Source: Acidobacteriota bacterium
Lineage (GTDB): Bacteria; Acidobacteriota; Blastocatellia; Pyrinomonadales; Pyrinomonadaceae
Length of the DNA stretch: 64,000 nt
Direction of reading: 5' to 3'
Assembly (NCBI GenBank): GCA_040002755.1
Contig: JBDUDV010000004.1
Location: 4,004-68,003, forward strand
The notes under the pieces were generated by a model, which ran no database searches, had not been told where the DNA came from, and saw only the letters and a list, made by a program, of their open reading frames with translations. A program made the position numbers and the translations under genes. Below, one piece after another: positions 7,248-64,000 of this stretch (position 1 is the first letter of the stretch; each line of letters opens with the position of its first letter).

Positions 7248-8621
7248 CTAACCGTCGGGCCTCCGCCGGCTGCCTGCTGCCGACTTTTTCTTTCGCCCGA
7301 GCGACCATGTAAGCAGCGGCGGCGTCACTAACGTGGTGACGATGACCATGATCACAACCGCGCCAAACGTCGCCGGGCCAATGACCGGCTCTGGAACCCC
7401 TTTCACATCGGGCAGCACCAGGGTGGCGCCGATGCCGGCGAATATCAATCCGACTTCGCCACGTGGAATCATTCCCAAGCCGACTGCCAACCTATTCGTG
7501 CCCCGCTCGAGCACCCCCACGGAACAAATCTGTTTCCCAATGACTGCCGCCAAAGTGAGTGCCGCAGCAAAGCCCAGCAGATTCAGCTGCGAAAAATTCC
7601 TGAGGTCAACTTTCATCCCCATCAAAACAAAGAAGACCGGCACCAGCACGAAGCTTGCGGGCCGCAGTAGATCGTGAAGGTTGCGCTCCTTGCGCGCGCG
7701 CGCCGGCTTGTAGTGAACCTCATCAAGCACCAGACCAGCGGCAAACGCTCCCACGATGGGCGCGAGGCCGACTTTAGCCGCAGCCCAGGAAAGAAACAGG
7801 CAAAAGGAGATAGCCAAGGTCAGCAGCACGCCTTCCGACTCTAACCGTCCGGCACCGCGCAGCAGGCGTGGCACAACAAACTTACCCAAAACGATTGCGC
7901 CAATCAGAAACAGCAAGGCCTTGACGGCGATTAATCCGACGTTCATCAGAGAAAGCGCGGCGCCCGTTGCGGTTGCTTTGATCGCCCCAGCAACCACGGC
8001 CAAAATCATGAGACCAAGGACGTCGTCAATCACCGCCGCACCGAGAATGATGCGCGCCTCGCGGGTCGCTAGTTTCGCCAGGTCTTTGAAGACGCGCGCG
8101 GTGATGCCAACGCTCGTCGCGCAGAGCGTAGCGCCGATGAAGATATGAACCAGACGCGATTCATTCGGAATAAAGTAAGCCGACACGCCCCAACCCAAAA
8201 AGAACGGAGCGATCACGCCAAGCACCGCCACCAGCAATGATGACCAACCAACTTCCATCATCTCTTTCAAGTCGGATTCCAGGCCGACTTCAAACAGCAG
8301 AATGATTACACCGATCTCGGCAATCGCCGCGATGATTTCGTTGGTCTTCAGCGGTTCGGCGGCAGTGAAACCAAACAACACCAGGTTTCCCAGGATGATT
8401 CCGCCAATGAGTTCGCCTAACACAGCGGGCTGTTTGAGTCGTTCAAATAGTTCTCCGCCAAGCTTGGCCACGATCAACATCGCGGCGAGCCCGACCAGAA
8501 CCATTGGCTGGAGGCTGTGACCAGCGCCTGCAGCCGGCGGTGCTGCTTGCGCTGCGCACGGAGATGCGGCGCACATCAGGAGTGCAGCGGCAACCAGGCT
8601 CGATTTTGCATGGTTTTTCAT
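7248..8621 (-). CDS. Cation:proton antiporter (CPA2, Kef/NapA-like Na+/H+ or K+/H+ exchanger)
   Basis: Polytopic membrane protein of about 12 TM with typical CPA motifs 'LGELIGGIILG', 'AEIGVIILLFEVGLE', 'GATLCATSVGITARV' and 'PRGEVGLIFA'. Confidence 0.85.
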   Translation of the reverse strand: MKNHAKSSLVAAALLMCAASPCAAQAAPPAAGAGHSLQPMVLVGLAAMLIVAKLGGELFERLKQPAVLGELIGGIILGNLVLFGFTAAEPLKTNEIIAAIAEIGVIILLFEVGLESDLKEMMEVGWSSLLVAVLGVIAPFFLGWGVSAYFIPNESRLVHIFIGATLCATSVGITARVFKDLAKLATREARIILGAAVIDDVLGLMILAVVAGAIKATATGAALSLMNVGLIAVKALLFLIGAIVLGKFVVPRLLRGAGRLESEGVLLTLAISFCLFLSWAAAKVGLAPIVGAFAAGLVLDEVHYKPARARKERNLHDLLRPASFVLVPVFFVLMGMKVDLRNFSQLNLLGFAAALTLAAVIGKQICSVGVLERGTNRLAVGLGMIPRGEVGLIFAGIGATLVLPDVKGVPEPVIGPATFGAVVIMVIVTTLVTPPLLTWSLGRKKKSAAGSRRRPDG

Positions 8622-9667: not shown

Positions 9668-9750
9668 ATGGGTGGATGGTGAGACTAATTTGTGAATAGC
9701 AATGAGCTATTGCTTTGCCTATTCACTATTCACAATTCACTGTTTACTAA
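9668..9750. repeat. Heptad-word imperfect hairpin (GTGAATA / TATTCAC words)
   Basis: The left part is '...tgtgaatagcaatgag'. The right part is 'cctattc actattc acaattc actgttt actaatc', five tandem 7-mers. The element fills the spacer between the phosphoesterase stop and the pgsA ATG. Confidence 0.55.
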
Positions 9751-57351: not shown

Positions 57352-57924
57352 ATGGACAGCGCTGGGATATCACAGTCGGGAAACGGTAACGGCGGCGACG
57401 ATCGGTTGGAAGAAGCGCCACTTAACCCGCCCCCGCTGCGCAATGCAGCCGGGAATATCGATCTCGACTCCGTTCCCGATGTTATCCAATGGTTCCTCGA
57501 TTTCGACCAGCGCGTCGCCATCGTTAAACACTCAAACGTCGAAGAAGTGTTTCAGTGGAAACAGGAAAACAGCCGCAGCCAGGGTGAAGTTGTTTTTGAT
57601 TTCAAGCAGGCGCAGGATCGTCTGGCCATCGGGATCATCCAGGCGCTGGCTGAACACAACACCGAACGCGCGCTTCATTCCTGGATTAGTCAACTTCTCA
57701 ACGCGCTCGACGAGGCCTCGAAGGCGAATGAGGCAGCCGCCGAGGCTTACCAGCTCGCTCTTGCTGCCGGCGGCTCAATTGTGAAGGAAGCAGATAAGAT
57801 TCCGTCGGCCCGCGGGCGGCGCGATTTTCTGATCAACTGTTGGGTCGAAACACTCTGCACCGCCGAAGCGCGTGTGCTGGGTTGGCTCTACCAGGAATTT
57901 TACGGTAAAGCTTTCGCACCGTGA
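57352..57924 (+). CDS. Hypothetical protein (190 aa), translationally coupled to both neighbours
   Basis: It starts 3 nt after the asparaginase stop, and its stop overlaps the next start (GTGA). No family recognised. Confidence 0.6.
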   Translation: MDSAGISQSGNGNGGDDRLEEAPLNPPPLRNAAGNIDLDSVPDVIQWFLDFDQRVAIVKHSNVEEVFQWKQENSRSQGEVVFDFKQAQDRLAIGIIQALAEHNTERALHSWISQLLNALDEASKANEAAAEAYQLALAAGGSIVKEADKIPSARGRRDFLINCWVETLCTAEARVLGWLYQEFYGKAFAP

Positions 57925-59075
57925 GTCCGTCCTTTGGTCCATACCACATGAACGACACTATTCGCGCGCTCTTTCCGGTAACAGAGCGCGCTATCTATTT
58001 AAACCACGCTGCGGTCTCAGCACCGCCAACTCCAACCATCAATGCGATCAAGTCGCAGCTTGCTGACGTTTCAGAAAACGGCTCGATAAACTTTCGCCGC
58101 TGGCTCGCAGTGAAGGAAAATGCCCGCCGGCTCGTCGCGGGAATGCTGGGCGTACTTCCCGAACAAGTCGCGTTCATGCGAAATACTTCTGATGGACTCT
58201 CGACCGTAGCCAACGGACTTGACTGGCAACCGGGGGACAACCTCGTGACTTTCCGTCATGAGTTTCCTTCAAACCTCTATCCGTGGCTGCGCCTGCGAGA
58301 CGCATTGGGCGTGGAAGTGCGTGTGTGCGAAGAACGCGATGCTCGTGTTGACACGGATGAACTAATTCGCTTGGTTGACCGCAACACCAGAATCGTCGCC
58401 ATCAGCCAGGTGCAGTATGCGTCTGGTTATCGCGCCGACCTCGAACGCATTGGGCGCGTCGCACACGCCCACGACGCGCTGCTGGTCGTTGATGTGATTC
58501 AGGCGTTGGGGGTGATTCCGATCGACGTCGAAGCCGAGTTGGTCGACGTCGCCGCGGCAGCCTGTCATAAGTGGCTGCTAACGCCGGAAGGCGTGGGGCT
58601 GTTGTATCTTTCGGCGCGGGCACGCGAACGCATTCAGCCGACGCTGGTGGGCTGGACGAGCGTTCCCAATCCGGACGACTACGGCAATTATGAGCAGGGT
58701 TGGAATCAGGGGGCACTCGCCTGGGAAACCGGGACGGCGCCAGTCGCCCTTATCCACGGATTGGAGGCAAGCCTGAAACTCTTGAATGAAGTTGGCATTG
58801 GTCGCATTCAGGCTTACCTGGAAACATTGACGGACCATCTCTGCGAAAGACTCCGCAACACGGATTATCGAGTTATCAGCTCCAGGCGAGCGGGAGAAAA
58901 ATCTCAGATTGTTTGCATTCAACACACGGGTGGTTTGAGTCCAATGGATCTTTACGCCCACCTCAAGCAGAAAAACATTATCACTGCCCCGCGTGGTGAC
59001 CGGCTGCGCATCTCGCCTCATTTTTACAACACGCTCGCTGAAATAGATGAGCTCGTGAAGGCTCTGCCGCAGTAG
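57921..59075 (+). CDS. Class V aminotransferase (cysteine desulfurase / selenocysteine-lyase-like fold)
   Basis: 'IYLNHAAVSAPP', 'ISQVQYASGYRADLERIG....HDALLVVDVIQALG', 'AAACHKWLL' (PLP-Lys region). The alternative start is the ATG at 57948. Confidence 0.85.
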   Translation: MSPSFGPYHMNDTIRALFPVTERAIYLNHAAVSAPPTPTINAIKSQLADVSENGSINFRRWLAVKENARRLVAGMLGVLPEQVAFMRNTSDGLSTVANGLDWQPGDNLVTFRHEFPSNLYPWLRLRDALGVEVRVCEERDARVDTDELIRLVDRNTRIVAISQVQYASGYRADLERIGRVAHAHDALLVVDVIQALGVIPIDVEAELVDVAAAACHKWLLTPEGVGLLYLSARARERIQPTLVGWTSVPNPDDYGNYEQGWNQGALAWETGTAPVALIHGLEASLKLLNEVGIGRIQAYLETLTDHLCERLRNTDYRVISSRRAGEKSQIVCIQHTGGLSPMDLYAHLKQKNIITAPRGDRLRISPHFYNTLAEIDELVKALPQ

Positions 59076-59644: not shown

Positions 59645-60829
59645 TTAGTTTCTCCGCTCCAGCAGTCGAGCCGGATCGGTTTCCGGAGTCAACTCGTCCA
59701 GGTTAAGACGGAGCATTGCATCGGAGTCAGCATAGGCCTCGCGGGCTCGTTGCTGTGCCCGGCGCGAGCGAAACAAGAGCGCGCCAAAGAACCCGCCAAC
59801 AGCCAGGCAAGTTACCAGTGCTAACCCAGATGTCTTAACTACGGAGACAAATACGCCCAGAGTCGTCTCAGTGAATTCACGCGTGGCTTGCTCGTAAGAA
59901 AACGGATTTCGTCCCAACCACTGAACTACTTGCTGATACTTCACCTGGTCGATGAGTTGGTTGGCCGCTTCCGCGCTTGGTGCGTCAAAAACAAACACCG
60001 AATAGTTGCCCACCCGACGATAGGCCGTCGGCGCCGGCTGTCCTTGAGCGCCAAGCTCTTGCAGCTTCGCTTTGATGCGCTGGTCATTCTCTGTTGCCAA
60101 CGAGGCGGTGTTGAATTCAACTATGATCAACTTCTGAGCGCCGTAATCAGCAACTGCAGCTTCAGCGCCCCCTTCGAAACTCACCACGTCCAGCACCTGC
60201 TGATTGCTGTACGCATTTATTAACGCTTCTTTGTTTGCGGCGTACAGCACTTGCGCCTGCTTGTTCTCCCAATCAGGAAGATGCTTCACCAGGACGGGAA
60301 TCTCACCGGCCCCTTTATCGAGCGTGTCGGCCAGACTCTTTGCAAAACTCGTCAGCCGTTGTGGGTCGGGTAACTTGTTCTCATCTTTCACGGCAACGAC
60401 AGCCCGACCCTTGAAGAAAATCAGAAATGTATCCGGAGCGGGACCCGAATGATAAAAACCCGATGTTCCAACATCTGCACTATCTGGCTTGTCGCCACTG
60501 ACCGCCTTTTCCGCAAGCTCCCTGCTTTGTGTCAGCTCAGCGTATGCTGCGGAGTCAGAAGGCAAGGTGATTAACACTATCGAAAAGCGGTGACCGTCTT
60601 TCGACACGTAAGTCCGACCTGCGCCCGACGTAACACTGGAACGCTGGTACGAGCTTTCAAGCGACTTGTTCTGTAACTCAGTCGGGTTGATCCCGCGAAA
60701 GTCTCCCAACTTATCCGGGAGGAGTTTGGCCGCAGGATCAGTCGGCAGACTCTGGCCGACAACGGGGACGAACGAGAGCAGCAAAGATGCCAACATCAGC
60801 AAGAATGTTCTGAACGCACGAGAAAACAC
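59645..60829 (-). CDS. Hypothetical exported protein with C-terminal TM anchor
   Basis: Signal peptide 'FLLMLASLLLSFVPVVGQ'. C-terminal TM 'LALVTCLAVGGFFGALLF'. No family recognised. Confidence 0.6.
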   Translation of the reverse strand: MFSRAFRTFLLMLASLLLSFVPVVGQSLPTDPAAKLLPDKLGDFRGINPTELQNKSLESSYQRSSVTSGAGRTYVSKDGHRFSIVLITLPSDSAAYAELTQSRELAEKAVSGDKPDSADVGTSGFYHSGPAPDTFLIFFKGRAVVAVKDENKLPDPQRLTSFAKSLADTLDKGAGEIPVLVKHLPDWENKQAQVLYAANKEALINAYSNQQVLDVVSFEGGAEAAVADYGAQKLIIVEFNTASLATENDQRIKAKLQELGAQGQPAPTAYRRVGNYSVFVFDAPSAEAANQLIDQVKYQQVVQWLGRNPFSYEQATREFTETTLGVFVSVVKTSGLALVTCLAVGGFFGALLFRSRRAQQRAREAYADSDAMLRLNLDELTPETDPARLLERRN

Positions 60830-60929: not shown

Positions 60930-61541
60930 TTAAGTCCGGCGTCGGAGTTCGCGCAAAAGCAGGTCGGCGTAATAGCGTGGCTTGCTGATGTTGTGAATGA
61001 CGGTGGTGCCGCCAATTTCGCTGGCGTTGTCGATCAACAAATCGCCAAAGCCGAGCAGGCGTTGCGGAATGCTGGCAGAAACTGTGACGTCCTGAATTTT
61101 GGTCAGCGGGATGTTGCGCGTCGTCCGCGCGATCAGGCCGGTATCAATCTCAATCTTTGAGTCGGTCAAGGTATACCGGACCATGTTTCGCTTCAGATGG
61201 TAATAAGCGGGAATCAGCAGCAGCGTCAGCGCCAACGGGATTGAGATGTAGATTGGAGGCTGAACATCGACCGGTAACAGGGCCAGCAGCACAACCAGCG
61301 CAATAGCCCCAGCCATCGCCAGGGCGTAACCGAGCTTGATGAAGATCATGGTGGGACGAACCGTGAAGACGACCTTCTCGAGATCGTCGTCATCCACCTT
61401 GCCGCTCGGATCCGGGGGCACCGGAAGGGCGCGCTCGGCGCGTGCGATTTGCGTTGCCTCCGGATCGTCGGCGGGGGAACCGCAGCCGGAACAAAAACGC
61501 TTGCCAGGCTCTAGTTGCGATCCGCAGTTGGAACAATGCAT
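60930..61541 (-). CDS. Zinc-ribbon + bacterial PH (bPH_2, YdbS/YdbT-like) domain membrane protein
   Basis: 'MHCSNCGSQLEPGKRFCSGCGSP'. Two TM segments. 'YTLTDSKIEIDTGLIARTTRNIPLTKIQDVTVSASIPQRLLGFGDLLI'. Confidence 0.75.
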   Translation of the reverse strand: MHCSNCGSQLEPGKRFCSGCGSPADDPEATQIARAERALPVPPDPSGKVDDDDLEKVVFTVRPTMIFIKLGYALAMAGAIALVVLLALLPVDVQPPIYISIPLALTLLLIPAYYHLKRNMVRYTLTDSKIEIDTGLIARTTRNIPLTKIQDVTVSASIPQRLLGFGDLLIDNASEIGGTTVIHNISKPRYYADLLLRELRRRT

Positions 61542-61559: not shown

Positions 61560-62030
61560 CTAAGGGGTTGGCGGCTTGGAGTCGACCGGAAGCCCCGCGC
61601 TTTGCCAGGCGGCGAAACCACCAAGTAGCGCACCAGCATTATCGATACCTTTTGTTTTCAGTTCGACCACCGCACGGGCGGACGTATGTTCGCTTGGTCA
61701 AGAACAGTAGGTGACGATCAGCTTATCCTTCGGTAACTCGTCGAAATGATTTACGATCTCGGCCTCAGGAATCAATTTAGCGCCTCTGATGTGCCCCATG
61801 TCCCACGAAGACTGATTGCGCACATCAATCACCACGGCTTGATTCTTATCCAACAGATCCTTGAGTTCAGCGACGGTCACGCGGCGCGCACCGTCAGTCG
61901 GAGCCGGCGCCACCGGAGCGGCCGCTGTGACCGGAGCCGTATTCTTGTTTTTCTGCTCAGCCGAGTTGCAGCCGCTTTGCACGACCGCCCCTAAAAGGCC
62001 GAGGGCCAAAAAGGAAATATAAAGACGCAT
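61560..62030 (-). CDS. Exported single-domain rhodanese (sulfurtransferase) interrupted by one in-frame TGA at 61698-61700: candidate selenocysteine codon or nonsense mutation
   Basis: ATG at 62030 has GGAGG 8 nt upstream. Signal/lipobox-like 'LALGLLGAVVQSGC'. 'AVVIDVRNQSSWDMGHIRGAKLIP...KLIVTYCS' is followed by TGA. The same frame then continues 45 codons, 'PSEHTSARAVVELKTKGIDNAGALLGGFAAWQSAGLPVDSKPPTP', to TAG 61560-61562. The ORF track shows only 61698-62192. Confidence 0.75.
61664..61684 (-). other. SECIS-like hairpin starting 14 nt downstream of the in-frame UGA
   Basis: The RNA is 5'-CGUCCGCC-CGUGC-GGUGGUCG-3'. Pairs are C-G, G-C, a U/U mismatch, C-G, C-G, G-U, C-G, C-G. The 5-nt apical loop contains GU. 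The structure was folded by eye only. Confidence 0.35.
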
Positions 62031-62219
62031 TAAAATGACCTCCAAAAAAGCCCGTGACCCACGATCGCGGGCACATAGTAAATTATCCACAGCTAATTTC
62101 TTATGCTCATCTGCATTTGTCAATGCCGCCAGTCCACAGCCCAGGACAAATGGTCGTGTTTTCTTTACTTCTTTGCGTGCTATAGTTCGCACTCACCAAA
62201 TCCTGAACACGGAGCTTTC

Positions 62220-63818
62220 ATGCTCGAGGAACCACAAACCCGGCCGGTAAAATGGGCCAAGGTCATCGATCAAACGCGTTGCATCGGTTGTCATGCTTGT
62301 ACAACCGCATGCAAGTCGGAGAACCTCGTGCCGCTCTCGGTGACGCGGACTTACGTCAAGCACGTCGACGTCGGCGTCTTTCCGCAAGCTCGCCGCGCGC
62401 ATCAGGTAACGCGCTGCAATCAATGCGCGCACGCGCCCTGCGTCACCGCCTGCCCGACCACGGCGATGTTTAAGCGCGCGGACGGCATCGTTGATTTCGA
62501 CAAATCGATTTGCATTGGCTGCAAAGCCTGCATGGCCGCCTGCCCTTACGACGCGATCTTTATCAACCCCGAGGACCACTCCGCCGAGAAGTGTAACTTC
62601 TGCGCGCACCGCATCGACGTCGGCCTTGAACCGGCGTGCGTTGTCGTCTGTCCGACGCAGTCAATTCTGATCGGTGATCTAAACGACACTGATTCGTACG
62701 TGGCGCAGATCGTCAATCGCGAAGCGGTAGCGGTTCGTCGTCCGGAAAAAGAAACGCTGCCAAAACTTTTCTACAAAGGCGCACACCAGGCGACGCTCGA
62801 TCCGCTCGCGGCGCGACGACCGGACGGCGGCTTGTTTATGTGGAGCGAACAACAGGAGAGTTCGTCGCAGGTAGTTTCCGGAAATCCAAACTTCAACAAC
62901 AGTTCGGCGGCAGCGTTGTTGTCTTACGATGTGGCACACGCGATTCCCTGGGACTGGAAAGTCAGCCTTTACACCTGGACCAAGGGCATCGCTAGCGGTG
63001 TTTACCTGGTTGCCGCGTTGCTCATCCTGTTTGGTTTCCTGAGCGCGAACAATTCGATCTGGTTGTGGGCAACACCAATTGTTTCCGGCGTCTTCCTGGC
63101 AATCACCGGCGGACTGCTGATTTGGGACCTGGAACACCCAGAGCGTTTCTATCTCATCTTCACGCGACCGCAGTGGAAAAGTTGGCTCGTCAAAGGCGCG
63201 TTCATCATTGCCGGATACACGCTGGTGCTCGGGTTGCACTTCCTCGCGAGTTTGCTGGGATGGAGAGCATTTCAAAGTTGGTTGATGCTCGCGGGAATTC
63301 CTTTGTCGATTATGACCGCGGTTTACACAGCTTATCTTTTCGCGCAGGCGAAGGCGCGCGACATGTGGCAAAACCCGTTGCTGCCACCACATTTGCTCAC
63401 GCAGGCGCTGCTGCTCGGATCGGCTGTGCTGTTATTAATGGCGTCGTGGTTTGAAAAAACTGCTGATGATGAACTCAGCCGAACGCTCGCTCGTCCGCTG
63501 AGCGCGGTTGTGGTTTCGCTTTGGATACTGGCAATCACGAGCCTGCTTCATCTTCTGATGATCTGGGGCGAAGTCTCTCTGACGCATCCAACAGCACACG
63601 CGCGTCTCGCAATTTGGGAGATGGTGCGCGGCAGATATAGGAGCGACTTCTGGATGGGAACAGTGCTGTCCATCGTTGGCGGATTGATTCCCGCGCTCGC
63701 TCTCTTCGGCGTCATCAGTATCTCGCTGGGCGTCGCCGGCGCGCCGCTGGGTTTGATCGGTATGATGCTTTACGAGAATGCTTACGTGCAGGCGGGACAA
63801 TCAGTACCGCTGGCTTGA
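62220..63818 (+). CDS. Fused 4Fe-4S ferredoxin-type subunit (PsrB/TtrB/NrfC-like) + NrfD/PsrC-like polytopic membrane subunit
   Basis: ATG at 62220 has GGAG 7 nt upstream. Four Cys clusters: 'CIGCHACTTACKSEN', 'CNQCAHAPCVTACP', 'CIGCKACMAACP', 'CNFCAHRIDVGLEPACVVVCP'. The C-terminal approximately 330 aa has 8 or more hydrophobic helices typical of NrfD-family quinol-interacting subunits. Confidence 0.8.
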   Translation: MLEEPQTRPVKWAKVIDQTRCIGCHACTTACKSENLVPLSVTRTYVKHVDVGVFPQARRAHQVTRCNQCAHAPCVTACPTTAMFKRADGIVDFDKSICIGCKACMAACPYDAIFINPEDHSAEKCNFCAHRIDVGLEPACVVVCPTQSILIGDLNDTDSYVAQIVNREAVAVRRPEKETLPKLFYKGAHQATLDPLAARRPDGGLFMWSEQQESSSQVVSGNPNFNNSSAAALLSYDVAHAIPWDWKVSLYTWTKGIASGVYLVAALLILFGFLSANNSIWLWATPIVSGVFLAITGGLLIWDLEHPERFYLIFTRPQWKSWLVKGAFIIAGYTLVLGLHFLASLLGWRAFQSWLMLAGIPLSIMTAVYTAYLFAQAKARDMWQNPLLPPHLLTQALLLGSAVLLLMASWFEKTADDELSRTLARPLSAVVVSLWILAITSLLHLLMIWGEVSLTHPTAHARLAIWEMVRGRYRSDFWMGTVLSIVGGLIPALALFGVISISLGVAGAPLGLIGMMLYENAYVQAGQSVPLA

Positions 63819-63843: not shown

Positions 63844-64000
63844 ATGAACTCTAAAGATAACGTGAGTGACGAAACCTTCTATCCCGGCCCGAGCCGAAAT
63901 CACCTCGCAGCGTTTCCGCCGAAGGAACGGTGGGACAACTGGACTGAGCTCGATTCGCAGGCCTGGCCGCGAAGGAAGGAGCGCCACTATTCACTGGTTC
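63844..64000 (+). CDS. N-terminal fragment of a probable molybdopterin (Mo/W-bisPGD) oxidoreductase catalytic subunit; continues beyond window
   Basis: The frame is open from ATG 63844 to the window end: 'MNSKDNVSDETFYPGPSRNHLAAFPPKERWDNWTELDSQAWPRRKERHYSLV'. The '...W..W.E.D..AWP.....Y.LV' lead-in resembles the segment preceding the N-terminal Cys cluster of this enzyme family (from memory). The position after an FeS/NrfD gene fits. Confidence 0.45.
   Translation, partial: MNSKDNVSDETFYPGPSRNHLAAFPPKERWDNWTELDSQAWPRRKERHYSLV

Follow-up and report, generated by a model that had tools for sequence, protein, structure and literature searches.

The subject of this study is a 64,000-nucleotide stretch of DNA (the window) from an Acidobacteriota bacterium of the family Pyrinomonadaceae (assembly GCA_040002755.1, contig JBDUDV010000004.1), and more precisely a minus-strand gene within it whose reading frame is interrupted by a TGA codon. 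We consider it highly likely that the gene is intact and encodes an exported, single-domain rhodanese lipoprotein, and that its UGA at codon 111 is recoded as selenocysteine (Sec) by means of a selenocysteine insertion sequence (SECIS) hairpin. The frame opens at ATG 62030, proceeds through 110 codons to TGA 61698-61700, and then remains open for another 45 codons to TAG 61560-61562. The complete read-through coding sequence (61560..62030, minus strand) specifies 156 residues, and the context of the stop is VTYCS-UGA-PSEHTSARAVVELK, or KLIVTYCS-UGA-PSEHTSARAVVELKTKGIDNAGALLGGFAAWQSAGLPV when a longer segment is considered. A first-pass annotation had given this frame and this context, both of which read the same on re-examination, and had named the gene a candidate selenoprotein. 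That reading is now supported because the TGA is conserved among homologous genes or replaced by Cys, the tail that follows it is constrained as protein, and a SECIS-type hairpin is confined to the TGA forms. Comparison of homologous sequences establishes that the UGA is conserved, that Cys takes its place in some homologues, that the tail is translated and that the RNA hairpin is selected only in UGA forms. From these observations we infer the identity of the inserted residue (Sec), the dependence of its decoding on SelB, and also the chemistry and function in the cell that are proposed for the protein below.

For all scans with Pfam and NCBIfam profiles the UGA codon was entered as Cys. The Pfam Rhodanese domain (PF00581) then occupies residues 52-144 of the 156 and covers profile positions 1-101 of 102; its score of 62.2 bits exceeds the gathering cutoff (22.2). 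Since the domain runs across the UGA, the stop cuts an otherwise intact rhodanese domain, as had been noticed when the frame was first read.

Homologous genes were collected from species-representative genomes and soil metagenome contigs, which yielded 105 unique sequences. The column that holds codon 111 (61698..61700, minus strand) contains TGA in 102 of these genes, TGT in two and TGC in one, and the restriction of the column to these three codons is the classic signature of a Sec/Cys pair. All 25 species-representative genomes without a Cys form have TGA as this codon, down to a protein identity of approximately 39% and including a metagenome-assembled genome (MAG) assigned to Chloroflexia. 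The frame beyond the UGA is open for 41-46 codons in every TGA form (76 in the Chloroflexia MAG, locus L026) and encodes a rhodanese C-terminus each time. Database proteins give a corresponding picture, in that 100 of the 120 closest proteins or protein clusters stop at ...[YH]CS directly before the column, 15 have Cys there, and five, all from the Joint Genome Institute (JGI), have Trp. The 15 proteins with Cys are of full length and carry YCSC[PS].E[HQ]T at this site. The first-pass annotation had stated that rhodaneses of the YCxCPxE type have a Cys where the UGA sits, and had suggested that this column be inspected in homologues; the Cys forms indeed read YCSCPAEHTAA. A UGA that aligns with Cys, and that is accompanied by UGA-containing homologues in other organisms, is the pattern by which bacterial selenoprotein genes are recognized.

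The two forms of the gene can occur side by side. For example, a Pyrinomonadaceae genome (GCA_036009765.1, contig DASYLB010000030.1) carries a Cys-form rhodanese lipoprotein gene, with TGT and no hairpin, in tandem with a TGA-form gene that has the hairpin (L065, 10001-10477 and 10505-10983), and locus L066 is arranged alike. Such tandem genes may constitute a pair of isoforms, one selenium-independent and the other selenium-dependent. A different tandem arrangement was observed in L020, where two TGA-form rhodanese paralogues (TGA at 9714 and 10283) each have the conserved hairpin.

These comparisons also bear on the two trivial explanations put forward alongside the original proposal, namely that the TGA is a recent nonsense mutation in a fresh pseudogene, or that it is an error of sequencing or assembly. 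A single TGY-to-TGA change would suffice to create it, and the source is a MAG. However, 102 unique genes, which come from separate assemblies and samples and diverge to 39% identity, all have this TGA, and their tails are intact and constrained. Both variants of this explanation are thereby refuted, and we regard it as extremely improbable.

A third way to account for an in-frame TGA is that the codon has been reassigned to sense throughout the genome (genetic code 4 or 25), which is what the Trp residues in the five JGI proteins (P0001, P0003, P0012, P0015 and P0017) would imply. However, the one gene behind such a protein that could be read as DNA (L067, 528-980) has TGA at the column. Trp in this gene is an artefact of translation, and the JGI calls in general look like code-4-style translations of short contigs. 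A relative obtained from NCBI (P0272) likewise has Trp at this position. The window has a G+C content of 55%, and TGA serves as the stop codon for 13 of its 27 longest open reading frames (ORFs). TGA 63816-63818 also closes the adjacent conserved gene for an iron-sulfur (FeS)-NrfD protein, 44 nt ahead of the start of the next gene, and in five orthologues (L002, L011, L021, L022 and L025) the read-through ORF is itself closed by a second TGA. The claim that TGA is an ordinary stop in this DNA thus holds, these stops refute genome-wide reassignment for the window, and we give that explanation almost no probability. In each of the five orthologues, a single mRNA would have one TGA that is read through and another that is obeyed approximately 42 codons later. 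A codon-usage filter on in-frame TGAs yielded no convincing candidate for a second selenoprotein gene in the window, and in a scan across loci for conserved in-frame TGAs, conserved genes translated in the wrong frame dominated the output.

The segment that follows the UGA evolves in the manner expected of protein-coding sequence. Proportions of synonymous (pS) and nonsynonymous (pN) differences were calculated for 1500 random pairs of TGA-form genes. Over the 50 codons before the UGA, pS is 0.74 and pN is 0.21, whereas over codons 12-40 after it the values are 0.70 and 0.20. Purifying selection on the tail past the hairpin thus equals that on the upstream part, and the identical pN/pS ratio of 0.28 on both sides of the UGA indicates that the tail is translated. 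The 45 codons in question (61563..61697, minus strand) correspond to the C-terminal helix-strand-helix of the rhodanese fold, such that conservation downstream of the UGA is protein-like and the tail completes the fold. When the orthologue P0004, a Cys form, is modelled with AlphaFold, the predicted local distance difference test score (pLDDT) is approximately 86-97 over residues 41-150, on both sides of the Sec/Cys column. The tail of this model consists of a helix (113-124), a strand (130-133) and a second helix (136-142) with pLDDT values of approximately 86-96, and the column itself lies in the loop that joins strand 102-106 to helix 113-124. A Foldseek search with the model returned single-domain rhodaneses as its top matches, with a probability of 1.00 and a root-mean-square deviation of approximately 1.8 Å; BH2092, Alr3790 and fusions of persulfide dioxygenase (PDO) to rhodanese were among the matches.

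It could still be argued that translation ends at the UGA to give a 110-residue protein, and that the conservation downstream derives from an RNA element or from a separately translated peptide. Every public annotation agrees with this view (approximately 100 clusters of 107-113 amino acids), and the hairpin described below is conserved at the level of RNA. However, the tail past the hairpin evolves as protein in the exact frame of the upstream gene, it contains no internal start codon, and without it the domain would lose its last helix-strand-helix. In addition, the Cys-form orthologues are contiguous and of full length, and they occupy the same locus. A product of 110 residues is therefore very unlikely.

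Recoding of the UGA as Sec would require an RNA signal in the mRNA, and a candidate is found immediately downstream. The SECIS-like hairpin (61667..61681, minus strand) is formed by CCGCC (61677-61681) and GGUGG (61667-61671), which enclose the loop CGUGC (61672-61676). Its stem begins 16 nt past the UGA and its loop 21 nt past it. For a 20-sequence alignment, RNAalifold predicts this 5-bp stem as the sole structure, with 100 of 100 cells paired. Thirteen sequences have C-G as the outer pair of the stem (alignment columns 26-40) and the other seven have G-C, without exception, and the middle pair (28-38) switches between G-C and G-U. When the 3' partner is shifted by 1-3 columns, pairing falls to 32-70%. 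All five pairs form in 101 of the 102 unique TGA forms, whose consensus is CCGCC-NGUKY-GGYGG with a loop that is always N-G-U-K-Y. The first-pass annotation had drawn a longer stem of eight pairs beginning 14 nt after the UGA. Its hairpin exists and has GU in the loop, but only five of the eight pairs are conserved and the stem starts at 16 nt; most orthologues do not form the three outer pairs (columns 23-43 are unpaired in 12 of 20, columns 25-41 in 17 of 20), and the eight-pair version was rejected.

The strongest evidence for an RNA element comes from synonymous constraint. Third-position entropy is zero at codons 6-10 past the UGA, whereas Ala codons elsewhere in the tail take all four synonyms, and pS drops to 0.037 at codons 6-11 compared with approximately 0.7 on both flanks. 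Genes that have Cys at the column lack the stem. The three Cys-form genes available as DNA retain only 2-4 of the pairs, with folding energies of -4.1 to +2.8 kcal/mol compared with a median of -6.6 kcal/mol for TGA forms, and the residues encoded over the hairpin are TAAIAV or TAIRAV in Cys forms as opposed to TSA[RGS]AV in TGA forms. The motif was counted 113 times in 1.35 Mb of loci, and 111 of these occurrences lie exactly 16 nt past a homologous TGA; because the genes are homologous, this number reflects constancy of position rather than independent recurrence.

Published criteria for bacterial SECIS (bSECIS) elements specify a loop of 3-9 nt, a stem of 4-16 bp, a G in the first two loop positions, a distance of 16-37 nt from UGA to loop, and a minimum free energy (MFE) of -7.5 kcal/mol or lower (PMC13188914). 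The window element has a 5-bp stem and a 5-nt loop in which the second position is G and the third is U; its spacing is 21 nt, and the local MFE is at or below -7.5 kcal/mol in 102 of 102 TGA forms. The original impression that spacing and shape are SECIS-like is borne out by this agreement, and by the conservation of the hairpin in TGA forms alone. In common with the SECIS elements of the Escherichia coli fdhF/fdnG type and the bSECISearch consensus, the element is an intragenic stem-loop located just past the UGA, with a small loop containing G-U at a permitted distance. Unlike the fdhF and fdnG elements, it is much smaller, with five conserved base pairs, and has neither a lower helix nor a conserved bulged U. 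A further difference is its nearly invariant sequence; its binding by SelB is a prediction from its form.

The active site indicates which of two positions the UGA occupies. Cys109 (TGT, 61704..61706, minus strand) is the canonical catalytic Cys of rhodaneses and is retained; it aligns with the catalytic Cys of solved structures (3tp9, 'vyCRTGG--RSA') and is invariant in the alignment of homologues. The loop that follows is two residues longer than usual and reads Y-C109-S-U111-P-x-E-H-T. Because Cys109 already fills the catalytic position, the UGA, initially placed at an active-site Cys position, does not replace the catalytic Cys but rather provides the second position of a C-x-U motif (C-x-C in Cys forms) two residues later in the loop. 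The protein therefore combines the catalytic Cys expected for PF00581 with a C-x-U active-site loop.

Rhodanese-related selenoproteins were described at the outset as already reported, and this proves correct. Such proteins have been predicted since 2005 (PMC1088965), and a 2026 review distinguishes five forms, of which 'form 3' corresponds to the NCBIfam model NF041203 and has the motif CxU (PMC13188914); a 2022 review had named the CxU form 'COG0607 form 2 (CxU)'. This model, 'rhodanese_LYCAU, rhodanese-related (seleno)protein', is the best NCBIfam match of the window protein (88.7 bits), and it also ranks first for nine other members of the clade, with 78-104 bits and a lead of at least 30 bits over the next family. 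The match extends over profile positions 14-126 of 126. Like NF041203 proteins, the window protein has a single rhodanese domain, keeps the catalytic Cys and places Sec (Cys in some members) two residues after it. Unlike them, the clade reads T-Y-C-S-U-P-x-E-H rather than L-Y-C-A-U. The clade proteins here carry a probable lipoprotein signal or a membrane anchor and show conserved linkage to FeS-NrfD and molybdopterin oxidoreductase (MopB) genes, features that, like the SECIS, form a comparison made within the clade rather than with bona fide NF041203 members. We treat the window clade as a sister clade of NF041203 that would work in the same manner, not as a formal member.

Other predicted rhodanese selenoproteins are less similar. 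These include forms 1, 2 and 4, in which Sec itself takes the catalytic position (UxxS or UxxG), a 'rhodanese-related sulfurtransferase' from the Sargasso Sea, and TsoB, which is a rhodanese/DsbD fusion with the motif UxxxxU (PMC1088965, PMC13188914). They share with the window protein the rhodanese fold, a Sec that is encoded by UGA and located within or close to the active-site loop, and a SECIS directly downstream. However, Sec replaces the catalytic Cys in these proteins, or the protein is a fusion, whereas the window protein keeps its Cys. The TsoB model gives clade proteins 31-43 bits, far from its cutoff of 805.

Several observations weigh against the proposal that the UGA is decoded as Sec. 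All NF041203 scores lie below the curated cutoff of 115 bits, which places the clade outside the family as defined and explains why its members are universally annotated in shortened form. A search for true NF041203 members, seeded with the clade member nearest the cutoff (L025), returned six matches, none of which is named a selenoprotein. The conserved 5-bp hairpin taken by itself has a median energy of approximately -6.6 kcal/mol, weaker than the -7.5 threshold of the published model, and the window sequence alone folds no better after the UGA than shuffled sequences (z = +0.43). Since the single-sequence fold is not significant, the significance of the hairpin comes only from comparison across genes. 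In this comparison, the compensatory swap of the outer pair may represent as little as one evolutionary event, and the DNA controls with a Cys form comprise three genes only. Rfam contained no matching family, either for the whole window at the gathering threshold or for 61560-61760 at E <= 10.

The decoding machinery itself was sought in the window and approximately 1.35 Mb of homologous loci with flanks of up to 10 kb only. Within this sequence, tblastn with E. coli SelA, SelB and SelD gave only a weak match resembling an elongation factor, at an unrelated betaproteobacterial locus, and ARAGORN detected no tRNA-Sec. Given the narrow flanks, the failure to find selA, selB, selD and tRNA-Sec there is uninformative rather than negative. 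Acidobacteria that decode Sec do exist (PMC1794560, Table 2), one being Occallatibacter riparius (PMC12013277, Table 2), and our literature search found nothing on Sec decoding specific to Pyrinomonadaceae or Blastocatellia.

The most serious competitor is a decoder other than Sec, in which case the hairpin would merely stimulate read-through and a different residue, such as Cys, Ser or Trp, would be inserted. Possible decoders are a UGA-suppressor tRNA, such as an acidobacterial allo-tRNA, or a tRNA-Cys that mimics tRNA-Sec (selC*/SelB*). Allo-tRNAs able to suppress nonsense codons are reported from Acidobacteria, and selC* tRNA-Cys species that act as opal suppressors from other phyla (Mukai et al., PMC5389517). 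The machinery for Sec was not found in the sequence searched, and a conserved UGA, a translated tail and a conserved hairpin would also be compatible with programmed read-through. However, the column holds UGA or Cys only, the geometry and the G-U loop match a bSECIS of the SelB type, and the closest curated family consists of selenoproteins that share the CxU motif. Furthermore, the study that describes selC* (PMC5389517) located it solely in anaerobic Firmicutes, Thermodesulfobacteria, Nitrospirae and Proteobacteria and in no Acidobacteria, and a general suppressor would also pass the many ordinary TGA stops. We consider a decoder of this kind unlikely. A more specific version, in which Pyrinomonadaceae or Blastocatellia lack SelA, SelB, SelC and SelD altogether and decode the UGA with its mini-hairpin by a hairpin-directed route, for example with an allo-tRNA as a site-specific opal suppressor, seems distinctly unlikely as well.

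If Sec is the inserted residue, the following sequence of events can be proposed. The hairpin CCGCC-NGUKY-GGYGG, positioned 16 nt past the UGA, would act as a bacterial SECIS and recruit SelB with Sec-tRNA(Sec) to the ribosome. Translation would then continue through the remaining 45 codons and complete the rhodanese fold. In the mature protein, Cys109 is expected to carry the persulfide, and Sec111 would most likely serve as its partner nucleophile and form a selenenylsulfide with Cys109. The product would thus work in the periplasm, where it would either transfer sulfur or selenium or act as a thiol/selenol redox protein.

The location of the protein is indicated by its N-terminus. On inspection it resembles a lipoprotein signal peptide (61968..62030, minus strand), MRLYISFLALGLLGAVVQSG, that precedes the lipobox Cys21 (codon 61968-61970). 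A charged start is followed by a hydrophobic core and the lipobox V-Q-S-G-C, which is L-T-A-C in most orthologues. C21 and S23 are invariant in the alignment of homologues, and distant members have either a lipobox or a membrane anchor. The protein is therefore probably extracytoplasmic.

Upstream of the gene, a ribosome-binding site (GGAGG) is present at 62039-62043. A promoter-like element farther upstream (62093..62123, minus strand) consists of TTGACAAA (62116-62123) and CATAAGAAATTAG (62093-62105), and both blocks are invariant over 12 loci that include Sec and Cys forms. A scan for consensus promoters did not flag these blocks, which may be a promoter or a binding site for a regulator, used jointly with the divergent FeS-NrfD operon. 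Just upstream of the ribosome-binding site, a hairpin that resembles a terminator and has a T-run (62052-62064, minus strand) was rejected as a feature because such structures occur at this frequency by chance and it is not conserved in orthologous loci.

The divergent neighbour (62217..63818, plus strand) encodes a 4Fe-4S/NrfD fusion with Fer4_11 and NrfD domains that resembles TtrB, DsrO and NrfC. The window and at least 21 loci have a gene of this type near the rhodanese gene, and in two rearranged loci (L019 and L022) it remains linked, located after the rhodanese gene on the same strand. Beyond it begins a MopB gene (63862..64000, plus strand) that runs off the window and whose product is 96% identical to the N-terminus of a 961-residue MopB protein encoded in L063. 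The best NCBIfam match of MopB is the PhsA thiosulfate reductase model, at 200 bits far below its cutoff of 694. Several loci also contain a nearby fusion of metallo-beta-lactamase (MBL)-fold and rhodanese domains. In the Cys-form genome that contains L063, an inserted PIN-domain/DUF433 toxin-antitoxin pair (7349-7908) separates the FeS-NrfD gene from the MopB gene.

The conserved link to an operon for a Psr/Phs-like molybdoenzyme suggests a role in sulfur-compound metabolism. A precedent is Sud of Wolinella succinogenes, a periplasmic rhodanese-like polysulfide-sulfur transferase without selenocysteine that serves the polysulfide reductase PsrABC. Like Sud, the window protein would be an extracytoplasmic single-domain rhodanese encoded beside a Psr/Phs-type enzyme with molybdopterin, FeS and NrfD components, although the analogy is functional only. 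Unlike Sud, it probably contains Sec, and the accompanying molybdoenzyme subunits have no visible twin-arginine translocation (Tat) signal. Because inspection revealed no obvious Tat signal in either subunit, the enzyme may face the cytoplasm, which makes a direct partnership in the periplasm uncertain. The FeS-NrfD/MopB complex may resemble the SoeABC-type sulfite dehydrogenases.

On the other side, a gene for a membrane protein with zinc-ribbon and bPH_2 domains (60930..61541, minus strand) starts 18 nt past the read-through stop and is probably co-transcribed with the rhodanese gene. It is followed by a gene for a DUF6599-like protein (59645-60829, minus strand) and one for a class-V aminotransferase (57921-59075, plus strand) that resembles SufS, CsdA and SclA, with scores under all cutoffs. 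The order of these three genes beside the rhodanese gene is kept in approximately 15 loci and lost in distant relatives, and it may reflect shared ancestry rather than a functional link.

Comparison of the available sequences indicates that the UGA-recoded gene is real, conserved and widespread in soil Acidobacteriota, and that it very probably encodes a CxU rhodanese selenoprotein whose SECIS is minimal. The gene represents a sub-clade of an already known selenoprotein type and reveals no new kind of system. An immediate consequence concerns annotation, since the gene is systematically misannotated. Approximately 100 database clusters, including NCBI annotations of MAGs, present it as a 'rhodanese-like domain-containing protein' of 107-113 residues, JGI sometimes renders the UGA as Trp, and the curated NCBI selenoprotein model misses the whole clade (78-104 bits compared with 115). 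A simple fix for annotation pipelines is thereby indicated. The clade also offers a clean natural system for study, because its SECIS is very small and nearly invariant, and because Sec and Cys paralogues can occur in tandem in one genome. If the UGA were instead decoded by a non-canonical route, a new mechanism of programmed recoding would be at work in an abundant soil lineage. If the residue is Sec, then many Pyrinomonadaceae and Blastocatellia, groups that abound in soils that are largely aerobic, would decode Sec and would use it for an exported lipoprotein. A concrete hypothesis for the function of this protein is a Cys-x-Sec relay for sulfur or selenium, which may be tied to a Psr/Phs-like molybdoenzyme.

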